From sequence record NC_020079.1: 64,000 bases of DNA. One strand, 5' to 3'. The notes beneath the pieces were generated by a model. The model was not told the DNA's origin and made no database searches. It saw only the letters and a program-made list of their open reading frames with translations. This DNA is from Escherichia phage phAPEC8. Below are positions 2,778-61,355 of this stretch, one piece after another. Within the stretch, counting starts at the first letter, position 1. Each line of letters opens with the position of its first letter. Made by a program: the position numbers and the translations under genes.

Positions 2778-3160
2778 AAACAGAAATCATTATTGAAATC
2801 ATCAACGGCTATAAAGAAGCCTTTATTTTTGCTGAATCAGCAAGGGATCATGAAGGTAATTTTATTGATAACTTAGACGATTATGATTTTTCTCCTAGTG
2901 CGGATCAACGGATCGCCCAGGATGTAACAGCCTTTATTAATGCTAATCTTGCCGCTATCTCTGAGGCAATGAGCGACGGCGCAACAGCCAACCAGATCGG
3001 GAATGATTTACATTTTACCCGTAACAGTCACGGCGTAGGCTTTTGGGATCGCCCTGAAATATACACCACTAACACGGCGAACCGCCTAACCAATGCAGCT
3101 AAGTTTATGCCGAACGTGTCGGCTTACATTGGTGAAGATAATTTGATTTATATTGAATAA
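2774..3160 (+). CDS. hypothetical protein
   Basis: ORF, ATGA overlap with upstream gene. Confidence 0.5.
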   Translation: MKTEIIIEIINGYKEAFIFAESARDHEGNFIDNLDDYDFSPSADQRIAQDVTAFINANLAAISEAMSDGATANQIGNDLHFTRNSHGVGFWDRPEIYTTNTANRLTNAAKFMPNVSAYIGEDNLIYIE

Positions 3161-3166
3161 AAAGTA

Positions 3167-3222
3167 TTGACACAGATCGCCAGTGTGCTAATATTTACCA
3201 CGTAGGGCGGCAATGGTGCCGC
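3167..3222 (+). promoter_or_regulatory. promoter (TTGACA/TAATAT) plus conserved 5' hairpin GTAGGGCGGCAATGGTGCCGC
   Basis: third exact copy of the 21-nt hairpin element. Confidence 0.6.
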
Positions 3223-3241
3223 CGATAATGAGGAAAATAAA

Positions 3242-3541
3242 ATGGAAACTATCGCTATTGTTACCGTAGAAAAACTGGTTGTTGGTGATGTATTCGCGTT
3301 AATGGTACCTAACAGCAGCAAGCTGGGCGCTTATGAAGTGATGGATCATAAAAATGAATCATTTGGCGACGGTTGCACAATGGCGGTAAAATCCTTAAAG
3401 GATGGAATCATCCGTCAAGCTAATTGGCACAAAGGGAATCAAGTCGGATTAATATCAGCTAATTTCTTGCCAGAACAGCAAACGTTAGACCAACTATCAG
3501 GCGGTAAGACGTTAGCCGAACTACTGGAAACAGCGATCTAA
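3242..3541 (+). CDS. hypothetical protein
   Basis: ORF with SD GAGGAAAA. Confidence 0.55.
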   Translation: METIAIVTVEKLVVGDVFALMVPNSSKLGAYEVMDHKNESFGDGCTMAVKSLKDGIIRQANWHKGNQVGLISANFLPEQQTLDQLSGGKTLAELLETAI

Positions 3542-3585
3542 TCAACAAAGGGGCGGCAACGCCCCACATCAGAAAGGAAAAGATT

Positions 3586-3822
3586 ATGAGTATTGCAACA
3601 GTATTAACCGCCGTTAAAACCGCTGAATCATCCGGCTTGCATGTTGAGCTTATAGATCAACCAGGTGGCGATCTCCTTGTCCAGGTTTACCCGCCGAAAG
3701 TAGGGGATGATCATTATTGGTGTTATTCTGATACGTTCGAACAAGTAGACACGAAAGCGATCACAGCCTTTATTTTAAAAGCCGTTGAAGAAAATAACTT
3801 TCATTATAACATCAATCAATAA
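3586..3822 (+). CDS. hypothetical protein
   Basis: ORF preceded by GGGGCGGCAACGCCCC hairpin and A-rich SD. Confidence 0.5.
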   Translation: MSIATVLTAVKTAESSGLHVELIDQPGGDLLVQVYPPKVGDDHYWCYSDTFEQVDTKAITAFILKAVEENNFHYNINQ

Positions 3823-3876
3823 ACCATAAGCAGGGCGGTAACGCCCCATTAAACGCAATAGGAAGAGGATAGACGC

Positions 3877-4161
3877 ATGAAAAAGATGATCGCAGTAGTT
3901 GCCCTGGTTGTTGGTATTAACGCGCCTACACTGGCTAATGAGTTGCCAGAATCCATCACGCTAACCGACATCAACGCAGTGAATCGGATCGGTGTTAATT
4001 ATCGCCTATGCCTTGCCGCTAAAACTTTCCAGGACGGCACGACAGAGTACTACGGATTCGAGGGTATCCGCTGCGGTGAGCTTGCACGCGACCTTAAGGA
4101 AGATCCAGACCTTGAGGCCATACCGATGACCGTAAACGGTAAAGCCCACGTAAACCGCTAA
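3877..4161 (+). CDS. secreted/periplasmic small protein
   Basis: N-terminal signal-peptide-like MKKMIAVVALVVGINAPTLA. Confidence 0.55.
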   Translation: MKKMIAVVALVVGINAPTLANELPESITLTDINAVNRIGVNYRLCLAAKTFQDGTTEYYGFEGIRCGELARDLKEDPDLEAIPMTVNGKAHVNR

Positions 4162-5058: not shown

Positions 5059-5478
5059 ATGAACATTAAATCAAATAATCCGGCTTACTCCTTCGATAAC
5101 GCTTTTTGTCACGGTAGCGCCGCCAAAGGCTTCGAAATCGATGGTAAATTGGTTATCGTGAACGTTGACGGGGAAGAGGTTGCAGTATATCCGGTAAACG
5201 ATGTTAAAAGCCGTTTACAATGCCGCATGGATGTTACCGCATATCAGCTTGATCCGATCCGTGTAGTTGCCCTGGTATTAGAGGAAGAGATCAAAGCAAT
5301 GCATCACAGCAATAAGTTTATTGGTGACGCGCAGGATAATATGAACGTTTGCCGCCATAAAGTTAATGAAGCACTGAAAGAATGCGGTTTTAAGGATCTG
5401 ATGATCAAACGTGATGAAAAATTCCGCTTTCGTAATGACCTGGCAAACCGGATCTACTCAATCTATGAAGCGTTATAA
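5059..5478 (+). CDS. hypothetical protein
   Basis: ORF after promoter TTGACA 4985-4990. Confidence 0.55.
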   Translation: MNIKSNNPAYSFDNAFCHGSAAKGFEIDGKLVIVNVDGEEVAVYPVNDVKSRLQCRMDVTAYQLDPIRVVALVLEEEIKAMHHSNKFIGDAQDNMNVCRHKVNEALKECGFKDLMIKRDEKFRFRNDLANRIYSIYEAL

Positions 5479-5493
5479 TTGACAACAAAACAA

Positions 5494-5520
5494 GGGGCGC
5501 ACCAAGCGCCCTTTCTTTTT
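5494..5520 (+). terminator. Rho-independent terminator, identical to 1-29
   Basis: GGGCGCACCAAGCGCCC + TTTCTTTTT. Confidence 0.7.
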
Positions 5521-7020
5521 GCCCGAACAATGTTGATAGCTTTCGCCTATGAAAAACCGACACAGAACAAAATTGAATAAATCGCGGTATCGAGCTAATC
5601 AACCATTAAACGAATAACCATACCTCCCAGGGTAACAGGCTGTTAGAGAGCCATTTAAAGCGGTTAAAATCGATCAACAACCAACAACAAACCATCAAAA
5701 ACACCCTTTTACCTCCTTTCTAGTGCAATGATAACCATTATCATCTATCCATGTTTATCTATGCAATATAAGTGCATAACTATAATGTTGATAATAGTTC
5801 GCAACAACTAACTAACCAACAACCTAAAACAATAAGCAAACTAATCATAATCAAAGGAATAATAGCAAGATGATTGATAACGACAAACAATCAAACCATG
5901 ATGAATACTAAGCAAGATAACGATAACACGACAAAACAACCAACTAACGAACAATAACAAACGAAACCATTAAAATAACAACTATTAGCAAAATAGTGCC
6001 TGAATGAAATCATTACAAAACGAATCATTCACAGGATCATCATTAGCACGCTATGCCGGACACATAGCGAGCTAATAATAAGCCAACTACACCCCAACAA
6101 TCATAACCATCGGTGATGGTTATTTCTTGTTACTGCGTAGCTTGCAATAATTGCAAGCGTAATTACGCTTACACTTATTGCGCTGGCTTATTATTAGCAT
6201 TATATGTAATTACCAAGATCATAACATTAGCGCAATAACAATAATCATTGTGGTAATTACAAGATGAGATCATTAGCAAGATGAATAATTGCACGTAGCA
6301 ACATGAGCGAATAGCGACAGGTTGCATAGTGTGCACATAGTGTATAAACATACAAGAAAATAAAGGCTAATCTTTTGGGGGCGAATACTATCGCGTAGCG
6401 ATATGTTGAGCACCTTCTCTTAAACGTAAATAAAATCAGAATAATCTTGATTTATTTTAGTTTTTATGTTAATAAACGTTTAAATAATAATCATTCTCAT
6501 ATAAATAATAGTCCGTTTGTCATGAGCGGGATTAGTTGACAGTGTTCCGTCATATGATGAAGTTGCCAACCCCTTGATAAATAAGCCTTTGTGTGATTTA
6601 TAATCAAGTGGCCCACCTTGTCGCTACGTTGGCATGAAGCTTGCATAAGTCATTGAATACGAATGATAATTATTCTCATTCGCATGATATTTGGGAATTG
6701 TCGCTGCGTGGACCTGACGGCCCGAAAATTCGCGTTAAGCACTTCTTACGTATACGCCATGATTTTTGCCATATGATATTGATTCTATTAGATATTCTTG
6801 CCATGATTGCCATGAAACAGGGTGTCCCGAAATAATCTCTCCCCGTAGATATTTTGGGTTACTTTTTATACAAGAGTGGGGTGTCAAAAATAATCGGTAT
6901 ATATGGGATAATTGATAGGAATCCCCTATGATAATTCGATTGTAATTCCCTAAGATTGATCGTATGATGTTGGTGATTGATGATTGCCATGAAAGATGGC
7001 TAACGATGAGAGGAGATTAT
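5521..7020. other. ORF-poor, A+C-skewed, palindrome-rich non-coding region
   Basis: no credible ORF; CAACAA-type low complexity; palindromes GCGTAATTACGC, TTGCAATAATTGCAA; repeated CATTAGCA and TTGCCATGA motifs. Confidence 0.6.
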
Positions 7021-26117: not shown

Positions 26118-26800
26118 TATTTCTCCTTATCTAGAAGATTGTTAGACAAAAACACTGCACGAGCAAAACCACGTGCGGTTAAGGATCTAAGTTGTTTTGT
26201 TTTTGCACTAGCTCCACCTAAGCTTTTCCAACCCCAGAAGCAGCCTATATGATCTACTGGTTTCTTCACTGGTTGAACAAAACCATTGCCGTGCCAAATA
26301 CAAGTTTTCTTTGTATACCCATCACGGGTAGGCATTTTAGGATGAAAGCTTCCTTCCTCTTCAAACAAATACCCACCATACTCATAAGGATCAAAGTAAA
26401 AATCGGGTTTACGCCATAAGGTTGAAAGTTTACCTACTGGGTTCTCAATCATCCAAGGAACATTATATTTGTTACCCAAAGCTTCCACTACACGAATATT
26501 AGCTAAAGCTTCATCTAGTTCCTCTGTGCTACGTTCGTGTTTGCTACCACTACCTGCTAACATAGTGCAAGGTGGAAATCCAAAAATAATATCGGGTTTA
26601 GGTATCCCATGATCTTCAGGGTTGAATGTAGAATCTATCCAGGCATTCACATAGGTTATGTTTGGGTGCTCCATCCTAACCTCGTATTTACCGTGATCCC
26701 CTTCATCAGCGTTTACACAAAAACACTTGTGACCTGCTTCGGCATAACGTAACACCATGATCCCAGATCCGTCAAACATAGACAAAACTGTTTTACTCAT
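26117..26800 (-). CDS. C5-cytosine methyltransferase-like protein
   Basis: FDGSG (motif I-like), GFPPCT (PC motif), ENP (ENV-like); start set at MSKT with SD GGAGGGG. Confidence 0.4.
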   Translation of the reverse strand: MSKTVLSMFDGSGIMVLRYAEAGHKCFCVNADEGDHGKYEVRMEHPNITYVNAWIDSTFNPEDHGIPKPDIIFGFPPCTMLAGSGSKHERSTEELDEALANIRVVEALGNKYNVPWMIENPVGKLSTLWRKPDFYFDPYEYGGYLFEEEGSFHPKMPTRDGYTKKTCIWHGNGFVQPVKKPVDHIGCFWGWKSLGGASAKTKQLRSLTARGFARAVFLSNNLLDKEK

Positions 26801-27206
26801 TACCCCTCCATTCAAGACAAGCCATAACTTTACGCCAATCACTTTCTGTAAGAAAAATCTCGTTTGCTTTCTTCCACAAATCTAAATCGTGAAGGGTTGG
26901 AATACGATATGTTAGTTCACAGAATCTATGCTCTTCTTCTGTAATATAACCAAAATGCAGAGCCACATCGTGAAACCAACACCAACCATGCATCTCTCGA
27001 ACAACATGGTCATGCTGAGACATTGTTTTATGCCGTAAACCTAACCAACAAGGAACAGATACTTTAGTAGTCTTTAATCTGTGATCAACAGTATTAGAGT
27101 ATTCAATAATAGCTGTCAGTTTCAATCGTGCTTTTTCTAAATCCTCATGGGTCACTTTGAAATAACTTTCTGAAAGATATCCACACATATTAATAACCTC
27201 CTTCAA
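26793..27206 (-). CDS. hypothetical protein
   Basis: ORF tiling. Confidence 0.5.
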   Translation of the reverse strand: MKEVINMCGYLSESYFKVTHEDLEKARLKLTAIIEYSNTVDHRLKTTKVSVPCWLGLRHKTMSQHDHVVREMHGWCWFHDVALHFGYITEEEHRFCELTYRIPTLHDLDLWKKANEIFLTESDWRKVMACLEWRGNE

Positions 27207-28131
27207 AAGGCTTAACTACATGTTGATTAGCTTTAAAACGTTCAACATAATCGTTTTCGCCCATGTTTTCATATAGCTTAGTAACAACATAAAAGTTTTC
27301 CCAAGCATATTCCCTAAACCAACCACTAGTGATGGATGTGCAGACTTTAGATAAAGCCATTATAAAACTTTGCTTAGGGGTTGGACCTCCGATCTCTTCA
27401 CCGAAAGGAATTTGTGAACGTTCCAAAGCCAAAACACACGCTTCTTCATAAACACCTAACAGGCGCACATGTTTTGGTTGAGCAAAAAACTTTTCTTTGC
27501 TGGTCATAACTTCACTTCCATCTTTCATATAAGATTTATATGCTGGAGCATCCATTACCGCGATTGCTTCATGGATAGAATCATGATCATAAACATACGG
27601 AACCTCATCACCTTTAAAGAAGTCTTTACTTTTTACGTTTAAGTTCGGATGAGAGTAAGTGTATGTTTCTTTCTCACGCAATTCATAAATACTCTTAAGA
27701 TTTTCTGGGATCTTTGCACCCAGTGACCGCATGAAATGAATATCTTTCATAGTTTTAAAGAAGTGAGGACTATCCTTTTTAAAACGATGACTCATTTTAA
27801 GAAGGTAGAGCACATCTAAAGGAGCAACAACATGTCCAGCGTAAGTTCGACGAACATCATCAGAACCTTCACAATAACTAATCAAAGCTTCTGTGCTATC
27901 TCCTTGAGAAGCAATATCATATTCCAAATGTGCACCAGCTATCATTTTGACATGGCCTTTGTTTCCTTTACGTTCTACAAGTTCAACAAACTCATCTTGA
28001 GAGAACATTTTTGATAATTCTTCCCACTCTTGTTCTGTACACAGGTAATCTAAATCTACACAAGGGCGATACAAGTCTTTTCCCATGTCCATAGCATGAA
28101 TTTGTAATGCACGGCTACCAATTAACACCAT
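27190..28131 (-). CDS. Pol-beta-superfamily nucleotidyltransferase-like protein
   Basis: N-terminal GS-x(n)-VDLD signature (IGSRALQ...CVDLDYL). Confidence 0.4.
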   Translation of the reverse strand: MVLIGSRALQIHAMDMGKDLYRPCVDLDYLCTEQEWEELSKMFSQDEFVELVERKGNKGHVKMIAGAHLEYDIASQGDSTEALISYCEGSDDVRRTYAGHVVAPLDVLYLLKMSHRFKKDSPHFFKTMKDIHFMRSLGAKIPENLKSIYELREKETYTYSHPNLNVKSKDFFKGDEVPYVYDHDSIHEAIAVMDAPAYKSYMKDGSEVMTSKEKFFAQPKHVRLLGVYEEACVLALERSQIPFGEEIGGPTPKQSFIMALSKVCTSITSGWFREYAWENFYVVTKLYENMGENDYVERFKANQHVVKPFEGGY

Positions 28132-28221
28132 AATATTTCTCCTCTATTGGTTGATAGGTTAAGTTTATCAAGCTTCCAGATTCCTGTCAATAAAAAACCC
28201 GCCGAAGCGGGTTATTATTTA

Positions 28222-28494
28222 CTAACACATTGAGGAAGAAGAGATCCAAACACCTCTTGTGGTTAAACCATTTTCATCCAACTCTACACCATAATCTTCA
28301 CAAATGAAATCAATATAGTGATCTGCGGCTGGCGTTCCTGTAGGGTAATAAGTTTCTCCGTTACCGTAGTCACCTATCCAAGCTTGTTCCTGAAACTGTT
28401 CACAAAGTTCTTCAATTTCCTTACGAAACTTTCTTTGTGCTTGTTCCATCTCTTTAACTTTCTTTTTTATCAGCAGTTCGCCTTCAGACTCCAC
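28222..28494 (-). CDS. acidic small protein, paralog 1 (C-terminal W-x-SSS-C)
   Basis: ends GVWISSSSMC; highly acidic. Confidence 0.5.
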   Translation of the reverse strand: MESEGELLIKKKVKEMEQAQRKFRKEIEELCEQFQEQAWIGDYGNGETYYPTGTPAADHYIDFICEDYGVELDENGLTTRGVWISSSSMC

Positions 28495-28503
28495 AATCTC
28501 TCC

Positions 28504-28764
28504 TTAACAGCTACTACTGTGCCAAACGCCTTGAGAATTAACGACGAAACCATCATCACCTTCACCATAACAAGAAGAGGATTGCCAATCTTCAAAACAG
28601 ATTGCGTCATCTTCTAAACTAAGACCAAAACCAGCATCTTCAGCTTCTTTTGTAAGTTCGTCCACTAAAGCCATAATAGCTTGGGCTTTTTCAGTTAATT
28701 CTTCAACATTACGATAACTCATTAGTATTTCTCCTCTGGTTGGAAAACGGAACGACATGCCCAC
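28504..28764 (-). CDS. acidic small protein, paralog 2
   Basis: ends QGVWHSSSC. Confidence 0.5.
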   Translation of the reverse strand: MGMSFRFPTRGEILMSYRNVEELTEKAQAIMALVDELTKEAEDAGFGLSLEDDAICFEDWQSSSCYGEGDDGFVVNSQGVWHSSSC

Positions 28765-29030
28765 ATAGAAGCTTCTTTCAACTTAGTCTTTGCTATTGAA
28801 ATTTGGTCAAGGCGGGTGGATATATTGGTAGACTCTTCCAAATCTTCACAATCATCCAGTTCAGTCCACAATTCAGACATTAGAGCATCAAAGATTAAGC
28901 CTAATCGAACTTCAGCATCTTTAAGAGCATTCACTTTACCAATTTTGTCATCGGTATGCGGTTTATAACCTTTGATATCTTCGATTCCCACTTTACCTCC
29001 TATTAACAACTTAAAGAAGATGGATGCCAA
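28722..29030 (-). CDS. hypothetical protein
   Basis: ORF; overlaps neighbour, start uncertain. Confidence 0.35.
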   Translation of the reverse strand: MASIFFKLLIGGKVGIEDIKGYKPHTDDKIGKVNALKDAEVRLGLIFDALMSELWTELDDCEDLEESTNISTRLDQISIAKTKLKEASMWACRSVFQPEEKY

Positions 29031-29200
29031 TTTGTTCCAGTATTCTCATTTTCATCTTCTGGATCATAATAACCACCCATCCCATATTCAGGGGAGAAAC
29101 TGAAACCTTCACCAGTCTCGTCTGCTAACTGCTCTGCTTCCGCTAAAGCCTCATAAGCTGCTTTTACGGCTTCTTCTACTGTTTTAAACTTGGTCGTCAT
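29003..29200 (-). CDS. acidic small protein, paralog 3
   Basis: ends NWHPSSLSC. Confidence 0.5.
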   Translation of the reverse strand: MTTKFKTVEEAVKAAYEALAEAEQLADETGEGFSFSPEYGMGGYYDPEDENENTGTNWHPSSLSC

Positions 29201-29474
29201 AAAATTTCTCCTCTCCTAAAGACATGTTGACATGAAATGCGCGGTATGTAAATTCGTTGTCCGTTGTGTTAGAATAAAACTCAAATTGAACAACACCATC
29301 TTGAGAAGACAGATACATGCCAATTTGAACTGTTCCTTCTGGTACTAGGTAAGCATACTCTGGACGTAGTGTTACATTGTAAAAATAAAGTTCCCCAACA
29401 CCCATTTCATCCCAAGCTTCCCAAGCGGTAACGAAGTTACTTTCAAAACTTGTTACTGATCTGAACTCTGCCAT
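29184..29474 (-). CDS. hypothetical protein
   Basis: ORF tiling. Confidence 0.5.
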   Translation of the reverse strand: MAEFRSVTSFESNFVTAWEAWDEMGVGELYFYNVTLRPEYAYLVPEGTVQIGMYLSSQDGVVQFEFYSNTTDNEFTYRAFHVNMSLGEEKFYDDQV

Positions 29475-29965
29475 AAAACCTCCTCAATCTTGTAGTTTGA
29501 CTCCATCTCCAACACATTTCCACGAACGTCTCTCCGAAGAAAGGCATAAGCTTTATTAGGTATTGTAGACTCATATTTAACCATATCTGGCACAGCAAAA
29601 GATACTACTACTCCTGCTGGGCTTCTGTCAAGAGCCTTATTAATATTTCTAAGGATATCGTTAGCCAAGATTTCTGCCAATTCTCCAAGAACGGTTTCGG
29701 TTATATCTTTATATCCCATTAAGTATTTGTTGATATCTTTCATCTCTGTATTGTTCAGAGTATAATCCAAAGGATAGAAATTCAAAGCGGAGTCACTTTT
29801 ATGTGTCCACATGAAATGCACCCGATCCGAGCAGAATCGTAACCCTCTTTGAAGAATATCTTCTACAACAGGTAGAATTTCTTTTGTCACATCATTAACC
29901 ATGTTGTAATCTAAGATTTCTGCCAAGTTTGTTCTTTGTTCACCACGTTTACGTTTAGGAATCAC
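29453..29965 (-). CDS. hypothetical protein
   Basis: ORF tiling. Confidence 0.5.
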   Translation of the reverse strand: MIPKRKRGEQRTNLAEILDYNMVNDVTKEILPVVEDILQRGLRFCSDRVHFMWTHKSDSALNFYPLDYTLNNTEMKDINKYLMGYKDITETVLGELAEILANDILRNINKALDRSPAGVVVSFAVPDMVKYESTIPNKAYAFLRRDVRGNVLEMESNYKIEEVLWQSSDQ

Positions 29966-30560
29966 TTGTTATTGCCCTCATTACCAAAGGTCGTAGAAAA
30001 TCGTAAATCTCTTGTTTTGTTTTCCCACGAATATTTAAACAAGGAACATTATTGGCTTTAGCTATCTTCCAAGCCGTAGCTGTTCCACCTTTTGCATCTC
30101 CATGTTTATCAGTATTAGCACAAGCCAACAAGAAACATGATGGAGCAGGATTCTCCAAATCTCTACCTAACACTTGATGCACATTACGTTGGTGCAATTT
30201 TCTAGCACCCTGCTTAAGCTTTTCATAGGCTGGGTGAACATCTTTGATCCATTGCACAGAGATAGCATAGTTCATTGTATCTGGTTTTGCAAGAACAATA
30301 ACATCCCCTGGAATCTGATTACCTTTGAAATTTTCCCAAGGAACATAAATCTCCTTGTTAGTAGGATTTTCAGACTCTTGGACACCTGTTTCAAAAGCAG
30401 AATCACTACCCTCTGCCTTCCCAGACCTTAATTTAAACCCAAGGTTTGAAAGCCATTTCCCTATGCCTACCATCAAAGCCCACTCTTCTTCGGATATGTC
30501 TCTACTTCCAACTCCCGTATAGAACAGTTCTGCCATAATCACCTCAACAAGTAATTTCAA
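29955..30560 (-). CDS. DprA/Smf-like (SLOG-superfamily) Rossmann-fold protein
   Basis: YTGVGSR ... SGKAEGSDSAFETG pattern. Confidence 0.45.
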   Translation of the reverse strand: MKLLVEVIMAELFYTGVGSRDISEEEWALMVGIGKWLSNLGFKLRSGKAEGSDSAFETGVQESENPTNKEIYVPWENFKGNQIPGDVIVLAKPDTMNYAISVQWIKDVHPAYEKLKQGARKLHQRNVHQVLGRDLENPAPSCFLLACANTDKHGDAKGGTATAWKIAKANNVPCLNIRGKTKQEIYDFLRPLVMRAITSDS

Positions 30561-59142: not shown

Positions 59143-59214
59143 GGCCCTGTAGCTCAATGGGAGAGCTGTCGGCTCATAACCGATAGGTAGCTGGATCGAA
59201 ACCAGCCAGGGCCA
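59143..59214 (+). tRNA. tRNA-Met (anticodon CAT)
   Basis: manual cloverleaf: acceptor GGCCCTG/CAGGGCC, loop CTCATAA, T-loop GATCGAA, CCA encoded. Confidence 0.75.
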
Positions 59215-59219
59215 CCAAC

Positions 59220-59291
59220 GTCTTTATGGTGTAATGGATAGCACAGGAGTCTTCTAAACTCTTAGTCAAGGTTCGATTCCTTGTAAAGACA
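59220..59291 (+). tRNA. tRNA-Arg (anticodon TCT)
   Basis: acceptor GTCTTTA/TAAAGAC, loop CTTCTAA, T-loop TTCGATT. Confidence 0.7.
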
Positions 59292-59528
59292 CCAGAACAT
59301 TTTAACATGAATTAGCTCAAGTGATTTGAACCCACTACTGATCATGGTGGCAGAGAATGAGGCAAGTATGTCAGACATTATAAACAAAGGCCACGGTTAC
59401 ATTAGAAGACATAAATGCTCGAAGAGCACCGTTCGTGGAGAACGGGGGTTGGTGGAGTCACCATTCATGGTAAAATGTTTTAAAAAACTATTGACAACTA
59501 ACATTATTTTATGTTAGATTATAAGTAT

Positions 59529-59616
59529 GGAAGGGCAAATCGACGTGGCGACGAAAACGGTCTTGAAAACCGCCGAGCTTGAAAGAGCCTTGGGAGTTCG
59601 ACTCTCCCTCCTTCCG
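59529..59616 (+). tRNA. tRNA-Ser (anticodon TGA), type II
   Basis: long variable arm; loop CTTGAAA; T arm GGGAG-TTCGACT-CTCCC. Confidence 0.7.
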
Positions 59617-59623
59617 CCAGATT

Positions 59624-59706
59624 GGTAGATTGGTGAAATGGTAGCCACGACAGTTTGCTAAACTGTAGTCGGAAACGGCGTGTAGGTTCGAGTCCTACAT
59701 CTACCG
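59624..59706 (+). tRNA. tRNA-Ser (anticodon GCT), type II
   Basis: acceptor GGTAGAT/ATCTACC; stem ACAGT/ACTGT loop TTGCTAA; long variable arm. Confidence 0.7.
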
Positions 59707-59836
59707 CCAAGTTGTTTTTAATGTAGCGTTGCGGCTACTTACTTTAGCAGAGTAAATCTTCGGCAAGTGGCGGTAACCACTTTACCGATACCGCATAGTC
59801 AGTAAGGCGAATACTGGCTACTTTAAAAACAATTTT

Positions 59837-59917
59837 GTGAGATTGGCAGAGTGGTCGATTGCGGGGGACTGTAAATCCCTTCTGAAAGGCGCGGTGGTTC
59901 GAATCCATCATCTCACA
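59837..59917 (+). tRNA. tRNA-Tyr (anticodon GTA), type II
   Basis: acceptor GTGAGAT/ATCTCAC; loop CTGTAAA; long variable arm. Confidence 0.7.
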
Positions 59918-59926
59918 CCAAATTAA

Positions 59927-60009
59927 GATGAGTTGGCTGAATGGTTTAAGCGGCGGACTGTTAATCCGTGTTCGAAAGAACGATATAGGTTCAAATCCTA
60001 TACTCATCG
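59927..60009 (+). tRNA. tRNA-Asn-like (anticodon GTT) with 15-nt variable arm
   Basis: anticodon arm GCGGA-CTGTTAA-TCCGT matches E. coli tRNA-Asn; extra GTTC-GAAA-GAAC hairpin in variable region. Confidence 0.55.
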
Positions 60010-60019
60010 CCAGAATTAT

Positions 60020-60096
60020 GGACTTGTAGAGTTAAGGTAAACCCCCAGTCGCCAAGAGGCTTCTGGAATTGCAGGTATCGAATCCTGCCGAGTCCC
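60020..60096 (+). tRNA. tRNA-like element, non-canonical, anticodon unresolved
   Basis: 7-bp acceptor GGACTTG/CGAGTCC and T-arm-like GCAGG..CCTGC, but no canonical anticodon arm and 8-nt T-loop. Confidence 0.3.
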
Positions 60097-60102
60097 AGCT
60101 TT

Positions 60103-60174
60103 GCTCCTATAGTATAATGGCTATTACAACGGTTTTGTAATCCGTGGATCTCTGTTCGATTCAGAGTGGGAGCA
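60103..60174 (+). tRNA. tRNA-Thr (anticodon TGT)
   Basis: acceptor GCTCCTA/TGGGAGC; loop TTTGTAA; T arm CTCTG-TTCGATT-CAGAG. Confidence 0.65.
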
Positions 60175-60452
60175 CCAACACAACATTAAGGGCACTGTGA
60201 TTGATCGTCGTATCCTGTGCACAAGGTCTGTTCGAAAGACAGTGTTCTTAGTATTGTGTTGATCACACAAAAAGAGTTACCTGAAACTTGACCGGAGTAG
60301 GGTTGGATGGGGCAAAAGAAGAAGCGGCTCTCCCATCGACAGCAACGAAGAATAATATTTGACTTTGGTTTTGTATTATTTTAAGTTAGCTTACCGAACG
60401 TAGGGCTAGTCACCCAACGGGATACTCGTCACTGTCCCACTCAATAAAACTA

Positions 60453-60483
60453 TTGACAACCAATAGTAAAATGTAGTATAGTA
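60453..60483 (+). promoter_or_regulatory. promoter (AACTATTGACAA ... TAGTAT) upstream of tRNA-Gly
   Basis: -35 TTGACA, 16 bp spacer, -10-like hexamer. Confidence 0.5.
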
Positions 60484-60493
60484 AAGATGTAGG

Positions 60494-60564
60494 GCGTTCT
60501 TGGTGTAGCGGTAGCATTCCGTCCTTCCAAGTCGGCGGCACGAGTTCGATCCTCGTAGAACGCT
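60494..60564 (+). tRNA. tRNA-Gly (anticodon TCC)
   Basis: acceptor GCGTTCT/AGAACGC; D-loop AGCGGTAG; loop CTTCCAA; T arm ACGAG-TTCGATC-CTCGT. Confidence 0.7.
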
Positions 60565-60666
60565 CCAAATTATTTAATAAAGGGTTGCCAGAAAACTTTC
60601 TCTTTTACTCATGGTTTTCTCCTTCTCTCACACCTCTTCTGGTTGCCCTTCATTAAATGATTTATT

Positions 60667-60739
60667 GGTTTGTAGTGTAGTCCGGTAGCACACGACACTT
60701 TGACTGTCGTAGGTTTGGTTCAAATCCAGACAGACCAGC
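60667..60739 (+). tRNA. tRNA-Gln (anticodon TTG)
   Basis: acceptor TGGTTTG/CAGACCA; stem CGACA/TGTCG loop CTTTGAC. Confidence 0.7.
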
Positions 60740-60834
60740 CATATAACAAAGGTGAGTCACTACCTCAAGTGTGAAGTTAAAAACGAGGAGCCGCCGAACA
60801 CTTTCTTTTGCGGCGTACCTTTAGAATGTTATGA

Positions 60835-60908
60835 CGGAATTTAGCTCAGTTTGGTAGAGTGTACGCTTTGGGAGCGTATTGTCGCAGGTTCGAATCCTGC
60901 AATTCCGA
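60835..60908 (+). tRNA. tRNA-Pro (anticodon TGG)
   Basis: acceptor CGGAATT/AATTCCG; D arm TAGCTCAGTTTGGTAGAG; loop TTTGGGA; T arm GCAGG-TTCGAAT-CCTGC. Confidence 0.8.
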
Positions 60909-60917
60909 CCAATTAAA

Positions 60918-60988
60918 TGTTTCGTAGTTCAATGGTAGAACCCACGACTGATAATCGTGAGATACAAGTTCGATTCTTGTCGAAACAA
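60918..60988 (+). tRNA. tRNA-Ile (anticodon GAT)
   Basis: acceptor TGTTTCG/CGAAACA; stem CACGA/TCGTG loop CTGATAA. Confidence 0.75.
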
Positions 60989-60993
60989 CCAGT

Positions 60994-61062
60994 TTCCCGT
61001 TAGACTTACAGGATAAGAGTTCCACAATTTATTGTGACGCTGGTTCGAATCCAGCACGGGAT
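60994..61062 (+). tRNA. degenerate tRNA-like element (possible tRNA pseudogene)
   Basis: 6-bp acceptor TCCCGT/ACGGGA and canonical T arm GCTGG-TTCGAAT-CCAGC, but anticodon region is a palindrome with no 7-nt loop. Confidence 0.3.
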
Positions 61063-61069
61063 ACATAAT

Positions 61070-61145
61070 AGCGGGATAGAGGAGTCTGGTCGTCCTCGCC
61101 AGTTTCATATGCTGGAGATCATTGGTTCAAATCCAATTCCCGCCT
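61070..61145 (+). tRNA. tRNA with CAT anticodon (Met, initiator or Ile-lysidine)
   Basis: D arm GAGG..CCTC; stem CCAGT/GCTGG loop TTCATAT; A1-C72 mismatch. Confidence 0.6.
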
Positions 61146-61355
61146 CCAAATATCGCTTGCCAGCGGTATCTTTGAAGACCTTGCCTGGTTCCTTCTAAGA
61201 TGGAGGGGTGCGACTCCTTAACGCACAATTATAATAAAGCATTTCAAATTAACAGTATTTATTAGCCTCCTTATTGGAGGCTTTTTGCTATCTATTGAAT
61301 AAAACTTGACTTATTATTTTTTATATGTTAAGATAAAGTTTAGGAGGATTTTATT

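Follow-up and report, generated by a model that had tools for sequence, protein, structure and literature searches.

Three small minus-strand genes of Escherichia phage phAPEC8 (sequence record NC_020079.1), here called A, B and C, encode acidic proteins with a common cysteine-ended C-terminal tail and are probably functional partners of a nucleotidyltransferase (NTase) that is encoded immediately downstream of them. They lie between positions 28222 and 29200 of the 64,000-nucleotide stretch that was analysed (the window, to which all coordinates refer unless another sequence is named). About 4 kb surrounding them is 99% identical to phAPEC8/ESCO13-like coliphages (Phapecoctavirus, Stephanstirmvirinae, genome of approximately 150 kb), and in the RefSeq annotation of ESCO13 every gene under discussion is labelled 'hypothetical protein'. 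To judge from their sequences, A, B and C are paralogous members of a widespread, phage-restricted family of small acidic proteins. Taken with its enzyme, this family speaks for a pairing of enzyme and partner that had not been described before, and not for DNA mimicry.

The preliminary description of the window had presented the three genes as adjacent members of a tandem series. All three were confirmed at their positions and correspond to coding sequences (CDSs) of RefSeq ESCO13, but they are not all adjacent, because a homolog of Acb2/Vs.4 splits A from B. Gene A (29003-29200) encodes the canonical type of 65 amino acids (aa) and matched phrog_899 (E=1.4e-13) as well as the hidden Markov model of the family (E=3e-22). 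An N-terminal helix is followed by a hairpin (F-S-F-S-P-E-YGMGG-Y-Y-D-P), an acidic linker and the tail NWHPSSLSC, whose motif WHPSSLSC (29006-29029), defined by sequence and family statistics, runs directly into the stop codon. Gene C (28222-28494; phrog_899 E=5e-14) starts with GTG and encodes the long type of 90 aa, in which the helix is followed by a variant hairpin (DYGNGETYYP), an insert and the tail GVWISSSSMC (motif WISSSSMC, 28225-28248). Gene B (28504-28722; phrog_899 E=7e-6) encodes a protein of 72 aa composed of a helix, GFGLSL..AICF, an internal EDWQSSSC, YGEGDDGFVV and a terminal GVWHSSSC. Its real start is the ATG that gives MSYRN; the longer reading frame of 86 aa is not the gene. 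The internal motif (WQSSSC, 28570-28587), which had escaped the preliminary description, resembles the terminal one (WHSSSC, 28507-28524), and B-type proteins look like the product of a duplication of the hairpin-tail unit. The WHSSSC ending is two residues shorter than the canonical spacing, a variant common to the B orthologs. Proteins of this double-motif type were also found in JS98, in Aeromonas phage 31 and in IMG/VR loci.

The three tails persisted when the true starts had been set, and the other properties claimed for the proteins were borne out: all are strongly acidic, with isoelectric points (pI) of 4.05 (A), 4.05 (B) and 4.40 (C) and net charges of -10 to -13, and the helical N-terminal half corresponds to a helix at residues 8-29 in the AlphaFold model of A. 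Among the 1073 stop-to-stop open reading frames (ORFs) of at least 30 aa in the window, only A, B and C end in W-x-x-S-x(0-3)-C; the shared tail pattern is not due to chance. Direct similarity between A and C is weak (BLASTP E=0.014), so the relationship of the three proteins rests on profiles and shared motifs.

A, B and C all aligned to the C-terminal part of the phrog_899 profile (PHROGs v4), which is annotated as 'unknown function'. A word-indexed search returned only close relatives and proteins of T4-like phages (Edwardsiella PEi20, Enterobacter Entb_45), while tblastn with C found relatives in 479 of 50,697 phage records, mainly from Tevenvirinae-like and Aeromonas phages. A profile of 14 sequences, run with HMMER exhaustively against 1.84 billion representatives, gave 190 clusters at E <=1e-3, the best 150 representatives of which were used for the tail and composition statistics. 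Their median length was 88 aa and the pI was below 5 in 85%. Cysteine was the very last residue in 142 of the 150; of these 142, 139 had Trp at -7, 140 Ser at -4 and all 142 Ser at -3, position -5 being occupied by Ser, Ala or Pro. The terminal Cys was the sole cysteine in 90/149. Y-G-x-G-G was present in 130 of the 150 and exactly as YGMGG in 109, and additional internal copies of W-x-x-S occurred in 41. The consensus of the family is thus an amphipathic helix (..EAE..ADE.G), a hairpin (F-S-F...YGMGG-T-Y-Y-P), a variable and mainly acidic linker and the tail G-x-W-x-S-S-S-x-x-C-COOH. The tail signature G-x-W-x-[S/A/P]-S-S-x-x-C, with Cys last, has its canonical spacing in A and C. The helix and the F-x-F...Y-G-x-G-G-x-Y-x-P hairpin are likewise present in A (YGMGGYYDP) and C (YGNGETYYP) and only partly in B, where the first unit (GFGLSL..AICF) is divergent and YGEGDDG is placed after the internal motif. 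Long homologs of the small proteins differed only in having extra sequence at the N-terminus that was coiled-coil or spurious.

Scans of A, B and C against Pfam, NCBIfam and PADLOC yielded only noise below threshold, namely coiled-coil families and an SflA lanthipeptide match (E=0.05). AlphaFold confidently predicted a helix and a three-stranded sheet for A (predicted local distance difference test, pLDDT, 91), with strands at residues 33-38 and 41-45. This fold had no known structural relative, and a PDB sequence search with a profile of the three proteins gave no match. Searches of the literature found no mention of phrog_899, DUF7275, DUF7277 or the motif (including YGMGG), and publications on phage MenT-like NTases, anti-defence in Phapecoctavirus and phage AMPylation held no description of the small proteins. 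The family, its tail and its phage-restricted pairing with the NTase therefore appear to be undescribed.

The NTase gene (27190-28131, minus strand) encodes 313 aa with matches to DUF7277, covering the N-terminal 87 aa, and to DUF7275. It is a MenT/AbiEii-like NTase of the Pol-beta fold, with an AlphaFold model of pLDDT 90. Residues G5, S6, D26, D28 and E70, which constitute the Pol-beta NTase signature, were invariant in 34 homologs, as were K112, H115, H123, H161, H183, D184, H187, E229, E230, E237, R238 and C264. With G5, S6, D26, D28, E70 and K112 all invariant, the enzyme looks catalytically active. It resembles NTases that act on hydroxyl acceptors, namely MenT (tRNA 3'-OH) and ANT(2'') and LnuA (sugar OH). 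Its His-rich, helical C-terminal half is invariant and had no counterpart in the PDB, and a PDB sequence search with the NTase profile gave no match. The protein is mildly acidic (pI 5.7). It did not match Pfam DUF1814 and has a canonical DxD in place of the [S/T]xD of MenT. RlaP, the RNA-ligase-associated NTases (PMC7824862), was considered as a home for the enzyme; there was no Pfam match and it was not assigned there. The family is large, with 2210 homology matches, and tblastn detected it in 734 of the 50,697 phage records.

Residues 264-271 of the NTase (C-T-S-I-T-S-G-W) mirror the W-x-S-S-S-x-x-C tail of the small proteins, with the same seven-residue spacing of Cys and Trp. In BillNye, Bachita and phi-Grn1, which have the three remotest NTases and are all without tail partners, Thr stands in place of Cys264; the Cys is retained in DSS3_VP1 and in locus L008, which likewise have no tail partners nearby. 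The C264-TSITSG-W271 segment could be a docking site or merely a phosphate-binding loop.

The association of the two kinds of gene extends far beyond phAPEC8. In the window, C ends 90 bp upstream of the NTase start codon on the same strand (79 bp from the stop-to-stop ORF of the NTase). Of 35 loci retrieved by means of the NTase alone (L004-L033 and L047-L051), 28 had between one and five tail ORFs within 3 kb on the same strand, often less than 100 bp from the NTase gene or overlapping it. They lay upstream in 27 of the 28 and downstream in phage Moby. Four of the seven loci that lacked tail ORFs were remote homologs with 25-33% identity. Among the IMG/VR loci retrieved with the NTase (44-78% identity), 20/23 had one to five same-strand tail ORFs upstream. 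Individual phages gave the same picture: five tail-bearing ORFs (four annotated CDSs) precede the DUF7275 homolog of JS98 and two that of Aeromonas phage 31, and the linkage recurs in Pseudomonas phiPsa381 (Otagovirus), Acinetobacter Berthold and, with the ORFs downstream, Stenotrophomonas Moby. It also held when the search was reversed. A DNA pattern for YGMGGTYYP identified 13 IMG/VR loci, and the NTase followed immediately in all 10 that extended far enough; in each of three phage records found through protein C it was located just downstream. When the window was included, 45 of 51 NTase loci contained same-strand tail ORFs within 3 kb (upstream in 44), one of the 45, L010, being counted only through a probably spurious pattern match.

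Among 185,579 bacterial and archaeal species, each represented by one genome, only five loci were found, all on phage-like contigs of metagenome-assembled genomes (MAGs) and all preceded immediately by a tail ORF. This makes the module essentially viral. Its flanking genes vary from lineage to lineage (nrdD/endo VII; e.6/e.8; gp41 helicase; a DprA-like gene with Acb2), so the pair travels as a mobile unit and is not a case of inherited synteny. A single NTase gene is accompanied by one to six paralogs with divergent bodies and an identical tail. The longer NTase homologs P0138, P0145 and P0146 were inspected as possible natural fusions with a small protein; they contain insertions or miscalled starts and no fused tail protein.

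The remote NTases of DSS3_VP1 (L030), Streptomyces phage BillNye (L031), Gordonia phage Bachita (L032) and Vibrio phage phi-Grn1 (L033) were without W..SS..C proteins. Each has a small acidic neighbour of another shared family (..GGEGQG...YFK..GWY.SY.G....EV.P..VT.T.W; no Pfam match), located at 6217-6612 in L030, 5749-6084 in L031, 5417-5887 (and 5130-5420) in L032 and 4570-4866 in L033; in these proteins the enzyme may have a second family of partners. These four NTases lie near RNA ligase, polynucleotide kinase or tRNA genes; the neighbours in L030-L032 are an RNA ligase 2 with a metallophosphoesterase, a polynucleotide kinase with two RNA ligases, or a tRNA cluster. Such surroundings hint at a role of the NTase family in processes at RNA ends or related to tRNA.

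What could the tail be for? The preliminary description had proposed a shared modification or binding determinant, and this proposal has gained ground: the tail is the most conserved element across the 190 clusters, it is strictly C-terminal, it recurs internally in some members and its carriers are nearly always found beside one NTase. Because it is obligatorily C-terminal and also recurs internally, and because one enzyme serves several divergent paralogs, it has the character of a short motif that is read by the enzyme. We consider a functional partnership of A, B and C with the NTase likely. A more tentative proposal, which we rate at somewhat less than an even chance, is that a Ser of the tail, or a Tyr of the hairpin, is O-nucleotidylylated or phosphorylated by it. 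The tail would then be presented to the enzyme together with the adjacent Y-G-x-G-G loop, the nucleotide or phosphate would be transferred to an invariant hydroxyl (Ser -3 or -4, possibly the hairpin Tyr), and the divergent paralogs would represent a set of substrates or effectors relying on one enzyme. The model draws on the action of Pol-beta NTases on hydroxyls and on two precedents. MntA, a Pol-beta NTase with GS..DxD, oligo-AMPylates the conserved Tyr104 of HepT, which is encoded by the neighbouring gene (PMC7641770), and MenT enzymes place phosphate on their own active-site Ser or Thr (PMC11375011). Moreover, one to six divergent paralogs with an identical tail for each enzyme fit many substrates better than many inhibitors. 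From these patterns we infer a physical interaction, the covalent modification and any downstream role. An unlikely elaboration of the proposal is a phage-specific system in which the NTase attaches a nucleotide or, in the manner of MntA acting on HepT, a short Ser-primed oligonucleotide to the Ser-Ser tail, that the conjugates act against tRNA-directed or nucleotide-signalling immunity of the host and that the His-rich domain is possibly an eraser or lyase.

Several observations weigh against a partnership of this kind. A hairpin with a T-run resembling an intrinsic terminator (28196-28213) directly follows gene C, and a sigma-70-like promoter (TTGACA-17-TAAACT with a TG; 28162-28190) precedes the NTase gene, both on the minus strand, so that C and the NTase gene are not strictly co-transcribed here. 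The NTases of L008-L010 are close relatives and have no tail proteins nearby. In the AlphaFold2 model of A, Trp58 is part of a strand within the small fold, so some of the motif conservation may be structural. Simple nucleotidylylation of Ser does not account for the invariant terminal Cys. Finally, the order of the genes, with the one for a small acidic protein placed before that for a MenT-fold enzyme, suits an antitoxin-like inhibitor equally well.

The last point deserves closer attention, since it concerns the main rival of the substrate model. In this alternative the small acidic proteins would bind the NTase and block or time its activity, the tail serving as a pseudo-substrate plug in the active site by analogy with MenA1-MenT1, while the enzyme would really act on tRNA 3' ends or on some other nucleic acid or nucleotide. 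The position of the genes is what such an arrangement would predict; we nevertheless regard it as rather doubtful. Up to six divergent paralogs for a single enzyme gene would be unusual for an antitoxin, and the proteins show no similarity in sequence or fold to MenA1 or to any solved protein. The near absence of the module from bacterial chromosomes argues in the same direction, as does its presence in virulent phages, to which the logic of addiction does not apply. In addition, the pI of the NTase is unlike that of a typical tRNA binder or of the partner of a very acidic inhibitor.

Alternatively, the small proteins could be stand-alone, host-directed effectors, such as mimics of DNA or other nucleic acids, signal sponges or inhibitors of defence systems or enzymes, that act independently of the NTase and share with it only an island of accessory genes; the tail would then be a structural, oligomerisation, metal-binding or host-target-binding element. 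Their extreme acidity and small size, and their location in the early region, are in keeping with this, as are the separation of C from the NTase gene by a terminator and promoter in phAPEC8 and the position of Trp within the predicted fold. An anti-CBASS sponge gene, Acb2/Vs.4 (CBASS, cyclic-oligonucleotide-based anti-phage signalling system), moreover sits within the cluster, and anti-defence genes tend to cluster. This gene is absent from the cluster of L004, however, which marks it as a secondary insertion here, and co-residence in an island can hardly explain by itself why the proteins are linked to one enzyme family across distant phage lineages, with varied flanks and in both directions of search. 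The suggestion in the preliminary description that the proteins are DNA mimics found no support: the charge fits, but neither fold nor sequence ties them to Ocr, ArdA, Arn or another solved protein. We therefore consider independent effectors an unlikely explanation.

A pathway like that of ribosomally synthesised and post-translationally modified peptides (RiPPs), in which the NTase would activate Ser -3 or -4, beta-elimination would yield dehydroalanine and the C-terminal Cys would add to it, giving a ring resembling lanthionine or aminovinyl-cysteine (AviCys; epidermin-type topology S-x-x-C-COOH), would accommodate the invariant Ser(-3)-x-x-Cys-COOH spacing, the often solitary Cys, the one to six tandem 'precursor' paralogs with a conserved Ser/Cys C-terminal motif beside one enzyme and the invariant His-rich second half of that enzyme, but it is highly improbable, since Pfam, PHROG and NCBIfam scans and 16 kb of RefSeq annotation revealed no LanB, LanM, LanKC, LanD-type or known RiPP enzyme among the neighbours, the 'precursors' are folded proteins of 65-150 aa with the conserved part as core, the sole lanthipeptide match lies below the cut-off and dehydration driven by an NTase is without precedent.

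The gene between A and B (28722-28991, minus strand) encodes the 89-aa homolog of the Acb2/Vs.4 sponge, identified by Pfam PF24729 (E=7e-19) and by PDB 7uq2, T4 Vs.4 (E=3e-42). In L004, a related contig, A, B and C follow one another without Acb2, so Acb2 is best viewed as a later, lineage-specific insertion. Its arrival in the cluster makes a counter-defence role of the module plausible. On the other side of the NTase gene, an ORF of 137 aa (26793-27206, minus strand) without a family match overlaps the NTase stop codon by 17 nt, an arrangement suggestive of translational coupling. This ORF is kept directly after the NTase gene in L004 (5941-6339) and not in other lineages.

Directly upstream of A are two conserved hypothetical genes, phrog_4991 (96 aa, 29184-29474) and phrog_8569 (170 aa, 29453-29965), both on the minus strand; they overlap one another and A and probably belong to one operon with A-C. 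The gene at 29955-30560 encodes a DprA-like/SLOG-type protein (phrog_768). Further away, the plus strand carries a cluster of 11 tRNA genes at 59143-61148 (Met x2, Arg, Ser, Tyr, Asn, Thr, Gly, Gln, Pro and Ile). In ESCO13 (L001), RefSeq genes for Sir2-like deacetylases dependent on nicotinamide adenine dinucleotide (NAD) are located together with a DNA methyltransferase gene at 2805-3936 and 5118-5801, a few kb downstream of the NTase gene, in a region that corresponds to approximately 23.8-26.8 kb of the window. A SIR2/CobB gene is similarly close to the module in Klebsiella phage KP13-26 and Vibrio phage phi-Grn1, and genes for nicotinamide phosphoribosyltransferase adjoin it in Aeromonas phage 31, Moby and DSS3_VP1. 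Genes related to NAD are thus a recurrent feature of its surroundings.

The module is carried by many T4-like, phAPEC8-like, Pseudomonas, Acinetobacter and jumbo phages, some of them candidates for therapy, and neither component of the pair has a name or a paper. NTases of the MenT/AbiEii fold are bacterial toxins and abortive-infection effectors. If our interpretation is correct, a virus-restricted branch with small partners of its own would show that phages have repurposed this fold, possibly for the modification of their own effector proteins or for the manipulation of tRNA ends under the control of pseudo-substrate regulators. In practical terms, a C-terminal W-x-S-S-S-x-x-Cys provides a simple signature for annotating a gene pair that is now labelled 'hypothetical', and a handle that is readily mutated.

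The fold of the enzyme and the theme of an NTase with a small neighbour, as in MenAT and HepT/MntA, are already known. Toxins of the MenT type extend the 3' ends of tRNAs with nucleotides, and the antitoxins that control them are small or kinase-like (PMC10435456, PMC11375011). Compared with MenA1-MenT1 of M. tuberculosis, the small proteins described here have no similarity to MenA1 in sequence or fold, and the phage enzyme differs from MenT in its canonical DxD, in the lack of a DUF1814 match and in its extra His-rich domain. Furthermore, the phage module has one to six paralogous partners with an invariant W..SS..C tail and is restricted to phages. HepT-MntA, a type VII toxin-antitoxin system of the HEPN/MNT kind, is similar in that a Pol-beta NTase with GS...DxD stands beside a small partner, and the modification of that partner by MntA is the mechanistic precedent for what we infer here. 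However, HepT is a HEPN RNase with Rx4HxY, whose Tyr is the acceptor, whereas A, B and C contain no Rx4HxY and gave no Pfam HEPN match; the phage enzyme has 313 aa with GS-x19-DxD, in contrast to less than 150 aa for a minimal MNT. Ocr, ArdA and Arn are also small, very acidic, early phage proteins, but unlike the family described here they have neither an invariant C-terminal tail nor a dedicated enzyme partner. A further comparison is offered by GlnD and GlnE with their respective targets PII and glutamine synthetase, where an enzyme of the NTase fold reversibly nucleotidylylates a hydroxyl on a small regulatory protein. In GlnD the NTase is coupled to a hydrolase (HD) domain, an arrangement that the combination of an NTase with a His-rich domain in the phage enzyme would parallel.

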